NCBI GenBank assembly: GCA_049324215.1
Contig: JBMOLC010000040.1
Span: 1 to 31,453 of the forward strand
Length of the DNA stretch: 31,453 nucleotides
Source of the DNA: Patescibacteria group bacterium
GTDB lineage: Bacteria > Patescibacteriota > Microgenomatia > UBA8517
Reading direction: 5' to 3'
The position numbers and the translations under genes were made by a program. Every line of letters begins with the position of its first letter. Within the stretch, counting starts at the first letter, position 1. Below the pieces are notes generated by a model. That model ran no database searches, had not been told where the DNA came from, and was given only the letters and a program-made list of their open reading frames with translations. Below are positions 2,704 through 16,465 of this stretch, piece by piece.

Positions 2704-4422
2704 CTATTGGTTTTTGATCTGATTTAACTTTTGAACTACCTCAACGTTGTTGGGACTGATAGTTAACGCCCTAGTCCACATCAATTCTGCATTTTCGTAA
2801 TCACCCTTAAGAAAAAAAACATCGCCCATTTGGGAGTAAACCTTCCAAGAATTGGGTAATATGCTCGATAAGCGATATAGGTATCCTAGTGCTTTGTTAT
2901 AATCTTTTCGACCTGCATAAATAGAGGCTAATTCTGTGTAAGCAGTAACAAAGTTTTTATTGGCTGCAATCTCAAAATACTTAATAGCGTTCTCATAATC
3001 CTTGTTATTCTTATAAAGTAGTCCAAGGTTAAAATAAGCGTTTGGCGGAAACGGGTTAAGAGTAATCGAGGTGTTAAACTCTCGAACGGCTTCCTCAGTG
3101 TTGCCCAAGGTTACATATTCGACTCCCAATTCAAGGTGGATTTTGTAATTAGAAGGATCATATTTTAAAATTTGCTTAAAAAAAGTTATCGGATTACCCC
3201 ACATGAAGTTTCTTTTTATTGATAATAATGAGAGGAAGACCAGATATATTATAAGCAAAGATATTAACGCCTTTTTAAAAAAGCCATTTTCCAGAAAATT
3301 GAAAAGTTCCCCAAATAAAGACGCACAGGCGATAAAAAATCCTATTAAGCCTAAATAAAGCCATCTTAAACCAATAATAAAATTAAGAGGGATGAATATA
3401 TTGCTGACAGGAATAAGAGAAATTAAGAACCACGTAAGGCCGAAAGAAATAATTCTTTTCTTTTTCCAGAACTTTATTATTGTGAACAAGAAAAGAGACA
3501 ATATGACTGCAGAAATTAAAACGCGTGGGTCACTTATCGAATCGTCCAAAATGGTCTCTGTTCGATAGTGAAGATCTAAAGGGAAAATTAATGTCTCTAC
3601 ATACACATAAAATGCTTTCAGAAACATAACAGACCTTGAAAGAATGGAGCTTTTGTAAATATCTGCGTTACCCGAAACTGTTAGCCAATTCTTCGAATTT
3701 ATCAGCTGTATAAATCCATAAGTAAAAGTTATTAGAAAGTAGGGGAGGGTGATAAATAAGAATCTCTTGGTTGAGATTTTGGATATTTTCTCTTCTAGAA
3801 AGCTGAAGAAAAAAAGTGACACCAATACGGGAAAGATTATTGCGGTTTCTTTTGATAATAAACCTCCAGTAAAAGAAATGATAGAAAATGCGTAAAATCT
3901 ATTTTTTTTATTTTTCTCTTTACTGACATAAGACTTTTCCAAAAACCAAATAGATAATAACAGAGATAAGACTAGGAAAAGATCTCCTCTTCCCGAAATG
4001 TAAGAAACGGCCTCTGTCTGTATCGGGTGAATAATAAAAAACAAAGATGCTAAAAAACAAATAAATTTATTTGGGGTTAGTCTCTGTCCAATCTTGTAAA
4101 CTAAGACCCCCGAAGTAATATGAATTAAGAGATTTATTAAATGAAAACCAAATGGGTTCAATCCCCAAAAATGATAGTCCAGCGAATAAGATATAAGAAG
4201 AAGTGGTCTATACCAACCAATTAACAAATTACTTCCGACAGGTCCCTTAATAGAAAAGAATTGCGAAAAATTCCAAGTCTTTATAAGAGGATTGTCAACA
4301 ATGATAATGTAGTCATCCCATATAAAAGGGTTCCATAAACTATTAAGGTAAAGAACGAAACCAATACATATAATTAAAATTATGTACTTACGATCGGTGA
4401 TTCTTCTAACAAATTCTCCCAT
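2704..4422 (-). CDS. TMTC-like GT-C membrane glycosyltransferase with C-terminal TPRs (copy 1)
   Basis: WDD..IIVDN loop, YRPL, HPIQTEAV, SKET motifs, many TM helices, TPR region (AYFNLGLLY, VYSQMGDVF..KGDYENA). Confidence 0.8.
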   Translation of the reverse strand: MGEFVRRITDRKYIILIICIGFVLYLNSLWNPFIWDDYIIIVDNPLIKTWNFSQFFSIKGPVGSNLLIGWYRPLLLISYSLDYHFWGLNPFGFHLINLLIHITSGVLVYKIGQRLTPNKFICFLASLFFIIHPIQTEAVSYISGRGDLFLVLSLLLSIWFLEKSYVSKEKNKKNRFYAFSIISFTGGLLSKETAIIFPVLVSLFFFSFLEEKISKISTKRFLFITLPYFLITFTYGFIQLINSKNWLTVSGNADIYKSSILSRSVMFLKAFYVYVETLIFPLDLHYRTETILDDSISDPRVLISAVILSLFLFTIIKFWKKKRIISFGLTWFLISLIPVSNIFIPLNFIIGLRWLYLGLIGFFIACASLFGELFNFLENGFFKKALISLLIIYLVFLSLLSIKRNFMWGNPITFFKQILKYDPSNYKIHLELGVEYVTLGNTEEAVREFNTSITLNPFPPNAYFNLGLLYKNNKDYENAIKYFEIAANKNFVTAYTELASIYAGRKDYNKALGYLYRLSSILPNSWKVYSQMGDVFFLKGDYENAELMWTRALTISPNNVEVVQKLNQIKNQ

Positions 4423-4430
4423 TATGTGGA

Positions 4431-4436
4431 ATTATA
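4431..4436 (-). promoter_or_regulatory. -10 box upstream of GT-C copy 1
   Basis: TATAAT 8 nt before ATG 4422. Confidence 0.5.
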
Positions 4437-4580
4437 TAGATTTTGAAGAAAAACTCTAAACTTAGCAAATAATAGCACGCTGGAAGTTAAGGTGTCATAC
4501 CTAAAAGTAAAGTTATCAAAAAGGCTTTTGAAAAATATGCGAAAGGATCAGACCAATCTGCAAATTCTTATTAACTCCCT

Positions 4581-9323: not shown

Positions 9324-9343
9324 CCTGCCAGTAGGCGGGCGGG
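9324..9343. repeat. Degenerate copy of the 20-bp palindromic element
   Basis: CCTGCCAGTAGGCGGGCGGG matches CCTGCCTGCCGGCAGGCAGG (14929..14948) at 15 of 20 positions without gaps. Confidence 0.55.
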
Positions 9344-13564: not shown

Positions 13565-16465
13565 CTAAGAAGGAGCTACCTTAAACTCCCCAAGAGAAAT
13601 TTTTTCAGCCACGGTTTTTGCTTTAACTCGAGAAAGAAGTTTTTTGTCGGAAGGTAGCCAGGGAGAAGAAACAGAAATCTTCTGACTAAGCGTCATCCCC
13701 AATTTTCTTCTTTCCTCCTGGATTTGTCTAATTAATTCCCGGACCCTGGCTTCTTCTTCTAGTTTAGGTGTAATTTTAAAATCAAATTCTTCCTTTTTGC
13801 CTCCCCAGACAACTTTCTTAACGTTTATTTCGTCCTGCAAAAGCTCTTCAATTCCGGACGAAAGTTTTTCTTCCTTGGTGGTAAAGGCGGCAAGGGGGGT
13901 TCTTACCGGAACTTTCTTTTCTTTCCTTATGGCATGGGCCCTCTCAACTATTCTTCTAACAGCCTCTATATCACTTTTTAGTTTTTCGTCTACTTCCCCC
14001 GCCTTCGGCCAGTCGCTTAAATGAACAGACTCTTCTTTGGTTAGGTTCGTGTAAATGATTTCAGCTAAGAAGGGTGTAAAGGGAGCCAGCAACTTGCAAA
14101 GAGTAGATAGCACATGGTTCATGGTTTCATAAAAAGCACTTTTGTCCTTCTCGCTTTCGGCTGCAGGGCCAACCCTGTCTCGGGAGCGCCGGATATACCA
14201 GAGGGATAAATCGTCAACAAATGTTTCAATTTCGCTGCTGGCATTATATGCGTCGTAATCCTTCAAAGATTCCTCTACGCTTTTTATTGTTTGGTTGAGC
14301 CTACTGACTATCCACTTATCAAGGATGTCTAAAGAGTTCTTAGTATTTCTCCCCGGTTTCCAACCGTCAATATTGGCATAGGAAACAAAAAAGTTATAGA
14401 CATTCCAGAGTTTGAGGTGAAACCTTCTTCTGGTTTCGTCTGCGAGGTGATATCCAAAAAGCAGGTTTTCGGAGGGGTTTTGCCGGGCGTACATCCAGCG
14501 CATGACGTCAACCCCGATTTTGTCCGCTCCCTCGTTAAACTCGATGGCATTCCCCCAGGACTTGTGCATGGGCCTACCGTCCTCACCCAGGAGTGTTGCA
14601 AACCCGAGTACCGTCTTAAAAGGTTCTCTATTCTCAAGAACTGTACTCATGGCGAGAAGGGAATAAAACCAGTTTTTGAATTGCCCCGGGAAACTCTCGG
14701 TAATAAAATCTGCCGGATACCACTTCTCAAATTCGGCCCGATCGGTTAAGTATAAGGGCGCGCTTTTGTTGTCCGAAGAAATCGTTGAAAAAGAAACTAT
14801 GCCCGCATCTAGCCAGGGATTGCCCACATCGGGAATTCTCTTCATAACCTGCCCACACTTAGAACATTTGATTTTAATCTCATCAATCCAGGGTCGATGG
14901 GGAGAGTTTCCCTCAAACTTCTCCCAACCCTGCCTGCCGGCAGGCAGGCTCAAAGCTTTTTCTTTGAGTTCTTCTTTTCCGCCGATTACCTCAAAGTGTC
15001 CGCACTCTTTACATTCCCAAATAGGAAGAGCTAGTCCCCAGTACCTTTTCTTTGAGATTAACCAGTCGTGCATGTTGGCAAGCCAATCAAGTTCACGCTT
15101 TAAGCCAAACTTGGGGATCCAGTTAATCTTCCTGGCTACCTTCTTAAGAGGTTCCCTTAAAGGGTCCATGGCGATGTACCACTCGTCGACCACCCTCCAA
15201 ACAAGTTCTGTTTTACAACGCCAACAAGCCGGATAGCGGTGGGTATAGGGGGTTATGTCGAAAAAATATTTTCCACCGTCTTTATTTTTCAAAAAATTAA
15301 CGATAATCTCGGGATGTTCTTTGGCATTTTTGCCCGAAAATTCACCCAAATCCGAAATATAAGTCGCTTCCTCGTCAATGAGTTCAATTACGGGTAAGTT
15401 TAGTTTTTTACCTAACTGAAAGTCTTCGGTTCCTGCTCCCGGGGCAACGTGCACTAGGCCCGTCCCCTCCTCTTCTGAAACCGGTAAAATCTTCTCATCT
15501 GTGGCAACCACTACGTGTTCGTATTTACCAAGAGAACTTTTAACCCTGGGAAGAAAATCAAAGGCAGATGTATATTTAAGTCCTACCAATTCTTCACCCT
15601 TAATCTTCTTTTCGATTTTGAGATTCAGTCTTTTGGCTGCATACTCATTTAAGTAATAAATATTCCCTTTAACCTCACCCCTAGCGGCAACATAATCTCT
15701 GTCGGCGGCAATTGCCACGGCAACGTTCCCGGGAAGGGTCCAGGGGGTGGTAGTCCAAACCAGAAGATATGCGTTTTTCCTGCCAACAATTGGGTACTCA
15801 ACATAAACAGAATCGTGGGTTGCCTCTTTATAGTCCTCGGTCAGCATCTCGTGCTGGGAAATGGCTGTACCGCAGCGGGGACACCAGGGGACTGAGTCGC
15901 GTCCTTTATAAATAAGTCCCTTTTCGTGGCATTTTTTGAGAAAGTGCCAAATCATGTAGTTATTTTCATCCGATAAGGTGTAATAAGAATTATCCCAATC
16001 CATGAAGTAACCTAGCCTTTTTGATTGTTCGGTTTGAATGGAAGCATACTTCTTGACTCTTTCCTTACAAAGTTCAACAAACTTGGCAATCGAAGCTTTT
16101 TTGTCCCCGGGAACAAGGTTCTCGATGTCTTTTTTACTCTTTAAACCAAGTTCTTTTTCAACTTCAACCTCAACCCAAAGACCCTGACAGTCAAAACCGT
16201 TTTGAAATCTCTGTTGGTAGCCTTGCAGGTTATAAAATCTCTGCCACAAGTCTTTATAGGTTCTTCCCCAGGCATGGTGTACTCCCATGGGATTATTTGC
16301 AGTAATCGGGCCATCAAGAAAAGAAAAGTATTTGGAAGAGTTTCTATTTTTCTGAAGATATTTTTTAACAAGACCGCTCTCGTACCAAGAAGAAAGAAGT
16401 CCTTTTTCTAAAGAAGGAAAATCGGGTTTGGGGTCAACAGAATCAAAAAAAGGCTTTTTAGCCAT
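13565..16465 (-). CDS. ileS: Isoleucine--tRNA ligase, type 2-like
   Basis: FLDGP.TAN, GFDCQGLWVE, LVWTTTPWTLPGN, GTGLVH.APG, DWLISKKRYWG, WYIRRSR; signatures read GVHH and PMHKS. Confidence 0.97.
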   Translation of the reverse strand: MAKKPFFDSVDPKPDFPSLEKGLLSSWYESGLVKKYLQKNRNSSKYFSFLDGPITANNPMGVHHAWGRTYKDLWQRFYNLQGYQQRFQNGFDCQGLWVEVEVEKELGLKSKKDIENLVPGDKKASIAKFVELCKERVKKYASIQTEQSKRLGYFMDWDNSYYTLSDENNYMIWHFLKKCHEKGLIYKGRDSVPWCPRCGTAISQHEMLTEDYKEATHDSVYVEYPIVGRKNAYLLVWTTTPWTLPGNVAVAIAADRDYVAARGEVKGNIYYLNEYAAKRLNLKIEKKIKGEELVGLKYTSAFDFLPRVKSSLGKYEHVVVATDEKILPVSEEEGTGLVHVAPGAGTEDFQLGKKLNLPVIELIDEEATYISDLGEFSGKNAKEHPEIIVNFLKNKDGGKYFFDITPYTHRYPACWRCKTELVWRVVDEWYIAMDPLREPLKKVARKINWIPKFGLKRELDWLANMHDWLISKKRYWGLALPIWECKECGHFEVIGGKEELKEKALSLPAGRQGWEKFEGNSPHRPWIDEIKIKCSKCGQVMKRIPDVGNPWLDAGIVSFSTISSDNKSAPLYLTDRAEFEKWYPADFITESFPGQFKNWFYSLLAMSTVLENREPFKTVLGFATLLGEDGRPMHKSWGNAIEFNEGADKIGVDVMRWMYARQNPSENLLFGYHLADETRRRFHLKLWNVYNFFVSYANIDGWKPGRNTKNSLDILDKWIVSRLNQTIKSVEESLKDYDAYNASSEIETFVDDLSLWYIRRSRDRVGPAAESEKDKSAFYETMNHVLSTLCKLLAPFTPFLAEIIYTNLTKEESVHLSDWPKAGEVDEKLKSDIEAVRRIVERAHAIRKEKKVPVRTPLAAFTTKEEKLSSGIEELLQDEINVKKVVWGGKKEEFDFKITPKLEEEARVRELIRQIQEERRKLGMTLSQKISVSSPWLPSDKKLLSRVKAKTVAEKISLGEFKVAPS
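14929..14948. repeat. Perfect 20-bp palindrome within ileS
   Basis: CCTGCCTGCC-GGCAGGCAGG is its own reverse complement; reads (S)LPAGRQ(G) in the ileS frame. Confidence 0.95.

Follow-up and report, generated by a model that had tools for sequence, protein, structure and literature searches.

What is a perfect 20-bp palindrome doing inside the only isoleucyl-tRNA synthetase gene of an ultra-small CPR bacterium, and how did it come to be there? The initial annotation had proposed, from the sequence alone, that the palindrome was inserted in frame within an essential gene and that it represents a very small mobile or self-propagating element tolerated in protein loops. We therefore compared the gene with its orthologues, searched the 704-kb assembly, related genomes and public sequences for further copies, and examined the junctions and neighbouring genes. 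Coordinates refer to the window, the whole 31,453-nt stretch of DNA that was analysed.

An in-frame palindromic insertion within ileS

The palindrome CCTGCCTGCCGGCAGGCAGG lies within an intact open reading frame of 966 amino acids, where the local reading is ...EKALS-LPAGRQ-GWEKFEGNSPHRPW (Table 1). The frame is the only IleRS match in the assembly, and its best solved relative is Thermus thermophilus IleRS (1ILE, E 4e-46). By chance 0.01 such matches are expected per window, even when three mismatches are allowed. The palindrome folds at -8 kcal/mol as DNA, and the 50-nt mRNA stretch around it folds at -20.9 kcal/mol with the 8-bp hairpin at its centre. No Rfam match was found around the site.

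Table 1. Features of the window bearing on the ileS palindrome
Position	Strand	Feature
14929..14948	.	20-bp perfect palindrome, with an 8-bp stem and a CCGG loop when single-stranded; one solo copy of a dispersed repeat family
14930..14947	-	Net 18-nt insertion relative to orthologues; ileS codons 507-512, read as LPAGRQ
13565..16465	-	Host gene ileS (966 aa)
9324..9343	.	15/20 match to the palindrome; not accepted as a copy

All 29 orthologues from related genomes lack exactly these six residues, as do 118 of the 119 best homologues drawn from 5.8 billion proteins. In a codon alignment with six orthologues the closest one reads AGC|GGG where this gene reads AGC, 18 nt, GGT, and removal of the 18 nt restores the orthologue length exactly. 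The copy sits in an indel-rich stretch between the two zinc-binding cysteine pairs. An AlphaFold2 model of IleRS residues 440-620, built with 22 sequences, was poor (mean pLDDT 59.5) and only suggests that the insert lies in a coil (pLDDT below 50).

The observation of a palindrome inserted in frame in ileS was thus confirmed. Two side observations of the initial annotation did not hold up. The 15/20 match proposed as a second copy is not itself palindromic (12/20 self-complementary) and falls in a mismatch class with 8 hits in the genome against about 1.7 in shuffled sequence, so it cannot be told from chance. A 9/10 half-site, also claimed within the window, is expected about twice per window by chance.

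Copy number and distribution

In the whole assembly the inner 18-mer occurs five times exactly, once with one mismatch and once with two, while the reversed control sequence gave no hit. It is the most over-represented 14- to 16-mer of the genome. The seven copies lie in ileS, pheS, trxB, topA and tsaD and at two intergenic sites. All five coding copies, plus one in an upstream open frame, are read as LPAGRQ, and in related genomes 27 of 34 copies inside genes are in this phase, far more than in the other two phases. The suggestion of the initial annotation that LPAGRQ-like peptides recur in CPR proteins is therefore real.

The gene tsaD is assembled both with and without the palindrome. One contig (C7) carries a palindrome-free tsaD 5' end, another (C1) starts in the palindrome, and the two are identical for the 126 nt that follow, which is the pattern of a graph branch. 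The filled allele differs from the empty one by more than a simple insertion, since 26 nt replace 2 nt. No empty alleles of ileS, pheS, trxB or topA were found elsewhere in the assembly.

The same 20-mer occurs in 16 of 41 related genomes, across at least four families, at 1-14 copies per genome. It was found in at least 120 stretches in genomes of at least nine phyla, including four cultured isolates, and in 35 viral-contig stretches, some with 3-6 copies. A 77%-identical IleRS (P0032) carries the exact 18-mer at the same codon boundary with different flanks, and the pheS site is filled in three genomes and holds other inserts in three more. A sequencing or assembly artefact, such as an adapter or a fold-back chimera, could be suspected because one copy starts a contig (C1) and another lies 104 nt from a contig end (C44). 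However, the sequence is present in assemblies from many laboratories, including cultured isolates and closed chromosomes, shows a strong reading-phase bias, occupies the same site in orthologous genes of different genera, and lies in the interior of long contigs such as this 31-kb window. We consider an artefact highly improbable.

A role useful to the cell (terminator, RNA stability element, uptake or recombination signal), with accumulation by selection rather than by mobility, would be compatible with the C44 copy, which lies between two genes and is followed by a run of seven T, like a terminator. Uptake sequences in other bacteria also show reading-frame preferences in genes. Against this, copies are discrete insertions relative to orthologues rather than products of point mutation, their distribution among close relatives is patchy (25 of 41 lack it), copy number is low, the identity across phyla does not fit a species-specific signal, and Rfam gave no match. 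This explanation appears unlikely.

Junctions of the inserted copies

The flanks of 164 unique copies were unrelated and random beyond position +-11. A search for target duplications of 2-5 nt at the 18-, 20- and 22-mer boundaries was negative, with only a weak excess of a shared single base (65 against 41 expected). At 19 of 163 sites the flanks match a tRNA gene once the 20-mer is removed; in most of these the match runs across the junction, some at 100% identity to the neighbouring intact tRNA, indicating precise 20-bp insertions. There is no single insertion position, as junctions fall at tRNA positions around 11-13, 21-25, 45, 56 and 71. Within genes the net insert is 18 nt in ileS, 21 nt in pheS and trxB, and 24 nt in topA and tsaD, so either the junctions are not uniform or alignments in loops are ambiguous.

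The initial annotation had also invoked a REP-like element, with a RAYT/TnpA(Y1)-type or other nuclease as a possible partner. A short hairpin-forming repeat present in many copies and inserted without target duplication would fit, and REPs inside genes are documented (PMC3733652). However, GTAG and CGTC tag motifs, in either orientation, occur beside the copies at about background level. A search with Y1_Tnp (PF01797) found nothing in this genome at E<=1, whereas control genomes gave matches, and no Y1-transposase-like cluster appeared among the 15 most recurrent, unannotated clusters of ORFs within 400 nt of 195 copies. Movement by a RAYT or IS200-IS605 type Y1 transposase is therefore very unlikely.

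A small GIY-YIG gene adjacent to some copies

ORFs within 400 nt of 195 sites were clustered without prior assumptions. The only recurrent non-host family was a small GIY-YIG nuclease of about 80 amino acids, found at seven loci in relatives and other phyla (designated L075, L076, L083, L148, L171, L188 and L289). All seven share the motif KSGxG(R/K)E. The gene is nested in tRNA genes, with the palindrome 14-25 nt (up to about 75 nt in one tandem case) upstream of its start, inside a displaced stub of the tRNA. Five of the seven proteins have ATG-defined lengths of only 79-88 aa, leaving no room for a second domain, while the L171 copy is fused in a 350-aa ORF. Pfam identified only PF01541, the nearest solved proteins are the UPF0213 proteins BH0048 and EF2693 (E 3e-8), and NCBIfam gave nothing above cut-off, with a TIGR01453 match covering only about 30-40 N-terminal residues. 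In the 41 relatives the motif pattern hits five places, three of which are exactly the three palindrome-adjacent nucleases, out of about 190 GIY-YIG matches. The three GIY-YIG genes of the genome under study lack the motif and carry other hairpins.

Only about 4% of copies (7/195) lie near the nuclease, and 13 of the 16 palindrome-bearing genomes sampled, including this one, show no KSGxGRE nuclease. In an even sample of 401 genomes of the phylum, scanned for the full palindrome-plus-nuclease arrangement rather than for either part alone, only one has it. The number of GIY-YIG genes per genome does not separate palindrome-bearing from palindrome-free relatives well (means 5.9 against 3.8).

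These observations leave open a possible, less likely alternative in which the palindrome is a real mobile or self-propagating hairpin but spreads by host processes or an unidentified enzyme (e.g. template switching at stalled forks, or capture of self-annealing oligonucleotides at breaks), the GIY-YIG cassette being only one lineage that happens to carry it. About 96% of copies have no cognate nuclease nearby, the filled/empty polymorphism occurs in a genome without it, the variable insert lengths suit imprecise repair, and a second, unrelated mini-palindrome family behaves similarly in this genome. On the other hand, exact 20-nt identity across at least nine phyla is hard to keep without a sequence-specific protein, and the association is specific to one nuclease subtype (3 of 3 against none of roughly 187 others). 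Moreover, in the cassettes the palindrome lies inside host-derived tRNA stubs that differ from case to case (Leu, Asp, Lys), so it appears anew with each integration rather than being inherited as a passenger.

A proposed miniature mobile hairpin

Taken together, the results lead us to suggest, as somewhat more likely than not, that the palindrome in ileS is a solo ("orphan") copy of a miniature mobile DNA hairpin whose unit is the 20-mer itself. The interpretation of the initial annotation was supported: the tests it had set, namely a length difference from orthologues at this site and over-representation in the genome, came out in its favour, although a RAYT/Y1 partner and the additional matches in the window were not supported. 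What the analysis shows directly is the clean 20-bp insertion without target duplication in non-coding tRNA-derived DNA, the restriction of copies within genes to net lengths that are a multiple of three, their predominant LPAGRQ phase, the position of the ileS copy in an intact frame, activity or recent activity in this population as judged from the two assembled forms of tsaD, the crossing of phylum boundaries, and the proximity of copies to one GIY-YIG subtype with a C-terminal Y-x-KSGxGRE motif. By contrast, we infer that selection removes frame-breaking copies and copies in the two cysteine-containing phases, that the ileS copy is tolerated and the enzyme still works, that the nuclease recognises and nicks the hairpin in single-stranded DNA, as Ssn nucleases do with their hairpin repeats, and that hairpin copies are then placed at new sites by repair or replication. 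The link to the nuclease is by association only, without biochemical evidence for any step, and because GIY-YIG enzymes cut but are not known to rejoin DNA, a copy mechanism is missing. In this view the seven copies of the genome studied here persist without their presumed enzyme.

If this reading is right, the element is among the smallest mobile DNA units known, remaining letter-perfect across distant phyla and repeatedly editing essential, highly conserved proteins (IleRS, PheRS, topoisomerase I, TsaD and thioredoxin reductase) without breaking them. It would offer natural markers of insertion-tolerant loops in essential proteins and a source of strain-level variation in reduced CPR genomes, and it suggests an enzyme-hairpin pair that could extend the recently found Ssn class of site-specific single-strand nucleases. 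For annotation, LPAGRQ-type inserts should be recognised as element scars rather than lineage-specific protein features. A more far-reaching possibility, which we regard as tentative and unlikely on present evidence, is that the 20-mer is the terminal recognition hairpin of a new kind of minimal mobile element with the ~80-aa KSGxGRE nuclease as its only protein, acting as a GIY-YIG counterpart of the REP-RAYT pair. Such an element would live in tRNA genes, shed solo hairpins genome-wide, move between phyla (perhaps on phages) and write a six-residue peptide into essential proteins.

Relation to described elements

We found no published description of this element: literature searches with the 18-mer and with LPAGRQ returned no paper, and a keyword search on palindromic in-frame insertions in CPR gave only unrelated papers. 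The closest precedent is provided by the Ssn GIY-YIG nucleases, which cut ssDNA next to their own NTS/SRM hairpin repeats (Chenal et al., Nat Commun 2025, PMC11893778). There too a small single-domain GIY-YIG gene sits next to a hairpin-forming repeat that is also scattered through the genome as many solo copies and is proposed to be the enzyme's specific ssDNA site. The repeat described here is a perfect palindrome of 20 nt, unrelated in sequence to the NTS/SRM consensus (CGTCATTCCC...GGGAATC). It lies only upstream of the gene, inside a tRNA stub, rather than on both sides, and the cassette is nested in tRNA genes. Copies number 1-14 rather than hundreds, many are in frame inside essential genes, and the identical sequence spans many phyla.

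REP/REPIN elements with RAYT transposases (Di Nocera et al. 2013, PMC3733652; Bertels & Rainey 2011, PMC3116915) are likewise short palindromic dispersed repeats with no target duplication, some of them inside genes, and have a dedicated enzyme gene flanked by the repeat. In addition to lacking the tag and the transposase, the present element is not mainly extragenic in this genome and is not species-specific. The small dispersed repeats (SDR) of cyanobacteria (Elhai et al., Genome Res 2008, cited in PMC3116915) are reportedly very small palindromic units of about 20-30 nt inserted precisely into genes, RNA genes and spacers, with no known transposase. They have different sequences and a different host group, and no nuclease partner or tRNA-nested cassette is reported to have been described for them.

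Free-standing GIY-YIG homing endonucleases (phage T4 Seg proteins, I-TevI) also place a GIY-YIG catalytic domain in a selfish cassette lodged at tRNA genes, which restores the interrupted gene. The nucleases considered here are 79-89 aa and have no separate DNA-binding domain of the kind that gives homing endonucleases a long recognition site, and homing endonucleases are not known to scatter a 20-bp hairpin across the genome. Finally, Rickettsia palindromic elements (RPE) are also inserted in frame into protein-coding genes, adding a tolerated peptide. RPEs are roughly 100-150 bp and confined to Rickettsia, whereas the unit found here is 20 bp, its host is a CPR bacterium, and its copies occur across phyla.

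The palindrome is an insertion in ileS

The 20-mer CCTGCCTGCCGGCAGGCAGG lies within a 966-aa open reading frame and is read ...KALS-LPAGRQ-GWEKF.... The frame was identified as isoleucyl-tRNA synthetase (IleRS): its best solved relative is the T. thermophilus enzyme 1ILE (E 4e-46), database homologues are named isoleucine--tRNA ligase of Woesebacteria and other Microgenomates, and it is the only IleRS match in the assembly. A match to the 20-mer, even allowing 3 mismatches, is expected 0.01 times per window. The initial annotation, which described a perfect palindrome inserted in frame in this gene, was correct in its central observation. However, its second copy, a 15/20 match, is not palindromic and falls in a mismatch class only mildly enriched in the genome (8 against about 1.7 in shuffles), so we do not count it, and the 9/10 half-site that it listed is expected by chance.

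To test whether the palindrome is an insertion, IleRS sequences from 29 related genomes were aligned, and every orthologue has a gap of exactly six columns at LPAGRQ. At the DNA level this gene reads AGC + 18 nt + GGT TGG, while the closest orthologue (88% identical over the 181-aa query stretch) reads AGC GGG TGG. Among the 119 best homologues out of 5.8 billion proteins, 118 are empty. The one exception (P0032), which is 77% identical over the same stretch and comes from an unrelated ENA contig, carries the exact 18-mer at the same codon boundary (GGC + 18 nt + GGT TGG) with different neighbouring codons. The same site has therefore been hit at least twice, indicating either that the site is preferred or that very few sites in IleRS tolerate the insert. 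The site aligns to an indel-rich stretch between the two zinc-binding cysteine pairs of 1ILE, and a low-quality AlphaFold2 fragment model (mean pLDDT 59.5) places it in a predicted coil between two short helices.

Coordinates of the features described. C numbers are contigs of this genome; L numbers are extracted sequence stretches.
Feature	Location	Strand
20-mer palindrome in ileS	window 14929-14948	
ileS open reading frame (966 aa)	window 13565..16465	minus
15/20 match, not counted as a copy	window 9324-9343	
Second mini-palindrome family, 23S rRNA region of C38	L005:966-982 and 1085-1101	
Second mini-palindrome family, other listed copies	L007:1904-1920; L003:2498-2514; L039:1705-1721	
GIY-YIG ORF (89 aa) within the 23S rRNA gene	L005:1501-1767 (C38:10908-11174)	
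Two further GIY-YIG cassettes (C11 and C18)	L006:1459-1710 and L007:1474-1707	
pheS site (14-nt palindrome in relative G029)	L237, same site as L003:1501-1518	
Fpg/Nei-like site in relatives G005, G022 and G011	L071, L072, L084	
Split tRNA stub beside tRNA-Val, no nuclease ORF between	L141:3628-3647, tRNA-Val at 3711	
Split tRNA stub beside tRNA-Leu, no nuclease ORF between	L115:4462-4481, tRNA-Leu at 4364-4445	
20-nt GC-rich word	C1:1024, C23:10771, C26:4563, C36:4422	
tRNA with anticodon CTA	C14:9648-9721	

A repeat family in housekeeping genes

The 704-kb assembly (47 contigs, 98.7% complete) contains five exact copies of the inner 18-mer, one copy with 1 mismatch and one with 2, whereas the reversed control gives none. 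It is the most over-represented 14- to 16-mer of the genome, and the flanks of the copies are unrelated. Five copies lie in housekeeping genes and all are read as LPAGRQ. The remaining two are intergenic: one lies between a pyrophosphatase-like gene and a gyrA-like gene (both named from the translated sequence alone) and is followed by seven T, while the other lies in the centre of a longer imperfect hairpin upstream of a gene.

Net length of the insert in the five genes that carry the palindrome.
Gene	Net insert relative to orthologues
ileS	+6 aa (18 nt)
pheS	+7 aa (21 nt)
trxB	+7 aa (21 nt)
topA (C-terminal zinc-finger region)	+8 aa (24 nt)
tsaD (N-terminus)	24 nt (filled against empty contig)

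The tsaD copy appears to be polymorphic. Contig C1 begins 4 nt before a palindrome, inside tsaD, while the 5' end of contig C7 holds the same tsaD N-terminus without the palindrome, and the two contigs are identical for exactly the 126 nt that follow. This is the signature of two paths joining at one node of an assembly graph, so on the evidence of the assembly both a filled and an empty form were present in the sample. The filled form differs by 26 nt replacing 2 nt, which is not a simple insertion.

The palindrome is found in many phyla

The exact 18-mer occurs in 16 of 41 related genomes, across at least four families of the class, at 1-14 copies each, and the reversed control is 0 throughout. 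The exact 20-mer was found in at least 120 stretches of the species-representative genome collection. By record titles these include Patescibacteria, Bacteroidota, Omnitrophota, Planctomycetota, Gammaproteobacteria, Bdellovibrionales, Thermodesulfovibrionales, Thermodesulfobacteriota and Chloroflexi, with cultured isolates among them (Winogradskyella echinorum, Flagellimonas yonaguniensis, Longitalea luteola and a Flavivirga strain). It is also present in 35 stretches of IMG/VR viral contigs, one contig holding six copies. This distribution rules out a study-specific artefact.

Outside CPR most copies are in non-coding DNA, with the three phases equally frequent (21/23/27), although copies in clear genes favour the LPAGRQ phase there too (8 of 12). 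In the relatives, 27 of 34 copies in long ORFs read LPAGRQ, 6 read PACRQAG and 1 reads CLPAGR. Three of the PACRQAG cases (relatives G005, G022 and G011) are one orthologous site in what looks, from the sequence alone, like the C-terminal zinc finger of an Fpg/Nei-like protein, where a cysteine of the insert falls next to the cysteines of the finger.

Anatomy of the insertion

Over 164 unique exact copies, the base on each side of the 18-mer is always C...G, indicating that the unit is the 20-mer (for the 115 loci retrieved with the 20-mer pattern this holds by construction). The next position avoids A, and beyond it the flanks are random. Neither a target duplication of 2 nt or more nor a GTAG/CGTC tag was detected. 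In 19 of 163 sites the two flanks, joined after removal of the 20-mer, match a tRNA gene; in most the match runs across the junction, and several are 100% identical to the intact tRNA next door. These are precise 20-bp insertions into displaced tRNA fragments. Inside genes the net length is instead 18, 21 or 24 nt, so the junctions vary or were adjusted, and only in-frame outcomes are seen.

The pheS gene looks like a hot spot. Three genomes of two families carry the palindrome at one site, while 24 are empty. At this site the relative G029 carries a different perfect 14-nt palindrome, CCGCCAGCTGGCGG, read PPAGG, and two others (G020 and G013) carry other inserts of similar length.

A miniature GIY-YIG nuclease is associated with the palindrome

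A search for Y1 transposases found none in this genome. It encodes three ~80-aa GIY-YIG ORFs, none of them near the palindrome. One sits inside what reads as the 5' part of the 23S rRNA gene, downstream of tRNA-Ala, one lies directly after tRNA-Gln and one after a tRNA 3' stub; the latter two are each preceded by their own hairpin, different from the LPAGRQ palindrome.

Elsewhere the picture differs. When ORFs within 400 nt of 195 copies were clustered without prior assumptions, the only recurrent non-host family was a small GIY-YIG protein (7 loci). In three relatives the layout is a tRNA 5' stub with the 20-mer inserted, then 14-75 nt, then the nuclease ORF, then the intact tRNA (Leu, Asp, Leu). 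At two further loci, palindrome-split tRNA 5' stubs lie directly beside the intact tRNA (Val, Leu) with no nuclease ORF between them, and these may be ORF-less derivatives of the cassette. The seven palindrome-adjacent nucleases share a C-terminal motif, Y-x-KSGxG(R/K)E, which the three nucleases of this genome lack. A DNA pattern for the motif hits only five places in the 41 relatives, and three of these are exactly the three palindrome-adjacent nucleases, out of roughly 190 GIY-YIG matches in those genomes. The pattern has no hit in this genome, leaving its copies as orphans, and in an even sample of 401 genomes of the phylum the full arrangement occurs once. The palindrome is therefore tied, by association, to one nuclease subtype, but most palindrome copies, and most genomes that carry them, lack that nuclease.

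Mechanism and relation to known elements

Taken together, the results show a discrete insertion belonging to a multi-copy family with unrelated flanks, identical across phyla, with a filled/empty polymorphism, a phase bias in genes and a clade-specific link to a miniature GIY-YIG cassette in tRNA genes. How the element moves is our inference. By analogy with Ssn nucleases, which cut ssDNA beside their own hairpin repeats (PMC11893778), we suggest that the nuclease recognises the hairpin in single-stranded DNA, that repair or replication then places copies at new sites, and that selection keeps only in-frame copies, mostly in the LPAGRQ phase, in tolerant loops. Alternatively, and this is the main rival, the hairpin could spread by host processes or an unknown enzyme, with the cassette merely carrying it. 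Against this alternative, the palindrome sits inside host-derived tRNA stubs that differ from cassette to cassette, from which we infer that it is made anew at each integration.

The behaviour resembles that of REP/RAYT elements, Ssn/SRM, Rickettsia palindromic elements (RPE) and cyanobacterial small dispersed repeats. It fails defining features of REP (tag, RAYT) and of RPE (size, lineage), and its sequence is unrelated to SRM. A literature search found no paper containing the sequence or the peptide. We consider this a real and biologically interesting feature, an instance of an apparently undescribed miniature mobile palindrome. The insertion itself is well supported. The proposal of the initial annotation, a very small mobile or REP-like palindrome tolerated in protein loops, is supported, although the tag and the RAYT transposase of REP elements are missing, and the mechanism is supported only by association.

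Other repeats and RNA genes in this genome

A second mini-palindrome family, CCCCGATT(T/C)AATCGGGG, has nine copies in this genome. Copies lie in the rRNA-operon contig C38, including two in the 23S 5' region (as read from the sequence), while others sit next to a GIY-YIG cassette, directly after the trxB stop, and in frame inside two long ORFs, where the palindrome reads PDLIG or PDSIG. A 20-nt GC-rich word of unknown nature, GACCCGGGGGAAGGTGGCGA, occurs four times, with about 15 nt of similar sequence on each side. Finally, ARAGORN calls a tRNA with anticodon CTA (labelled tRNA-Pyl) inside a cluster of ordinary tRNA genes, which could be an amber-suppressor-like tRNA.
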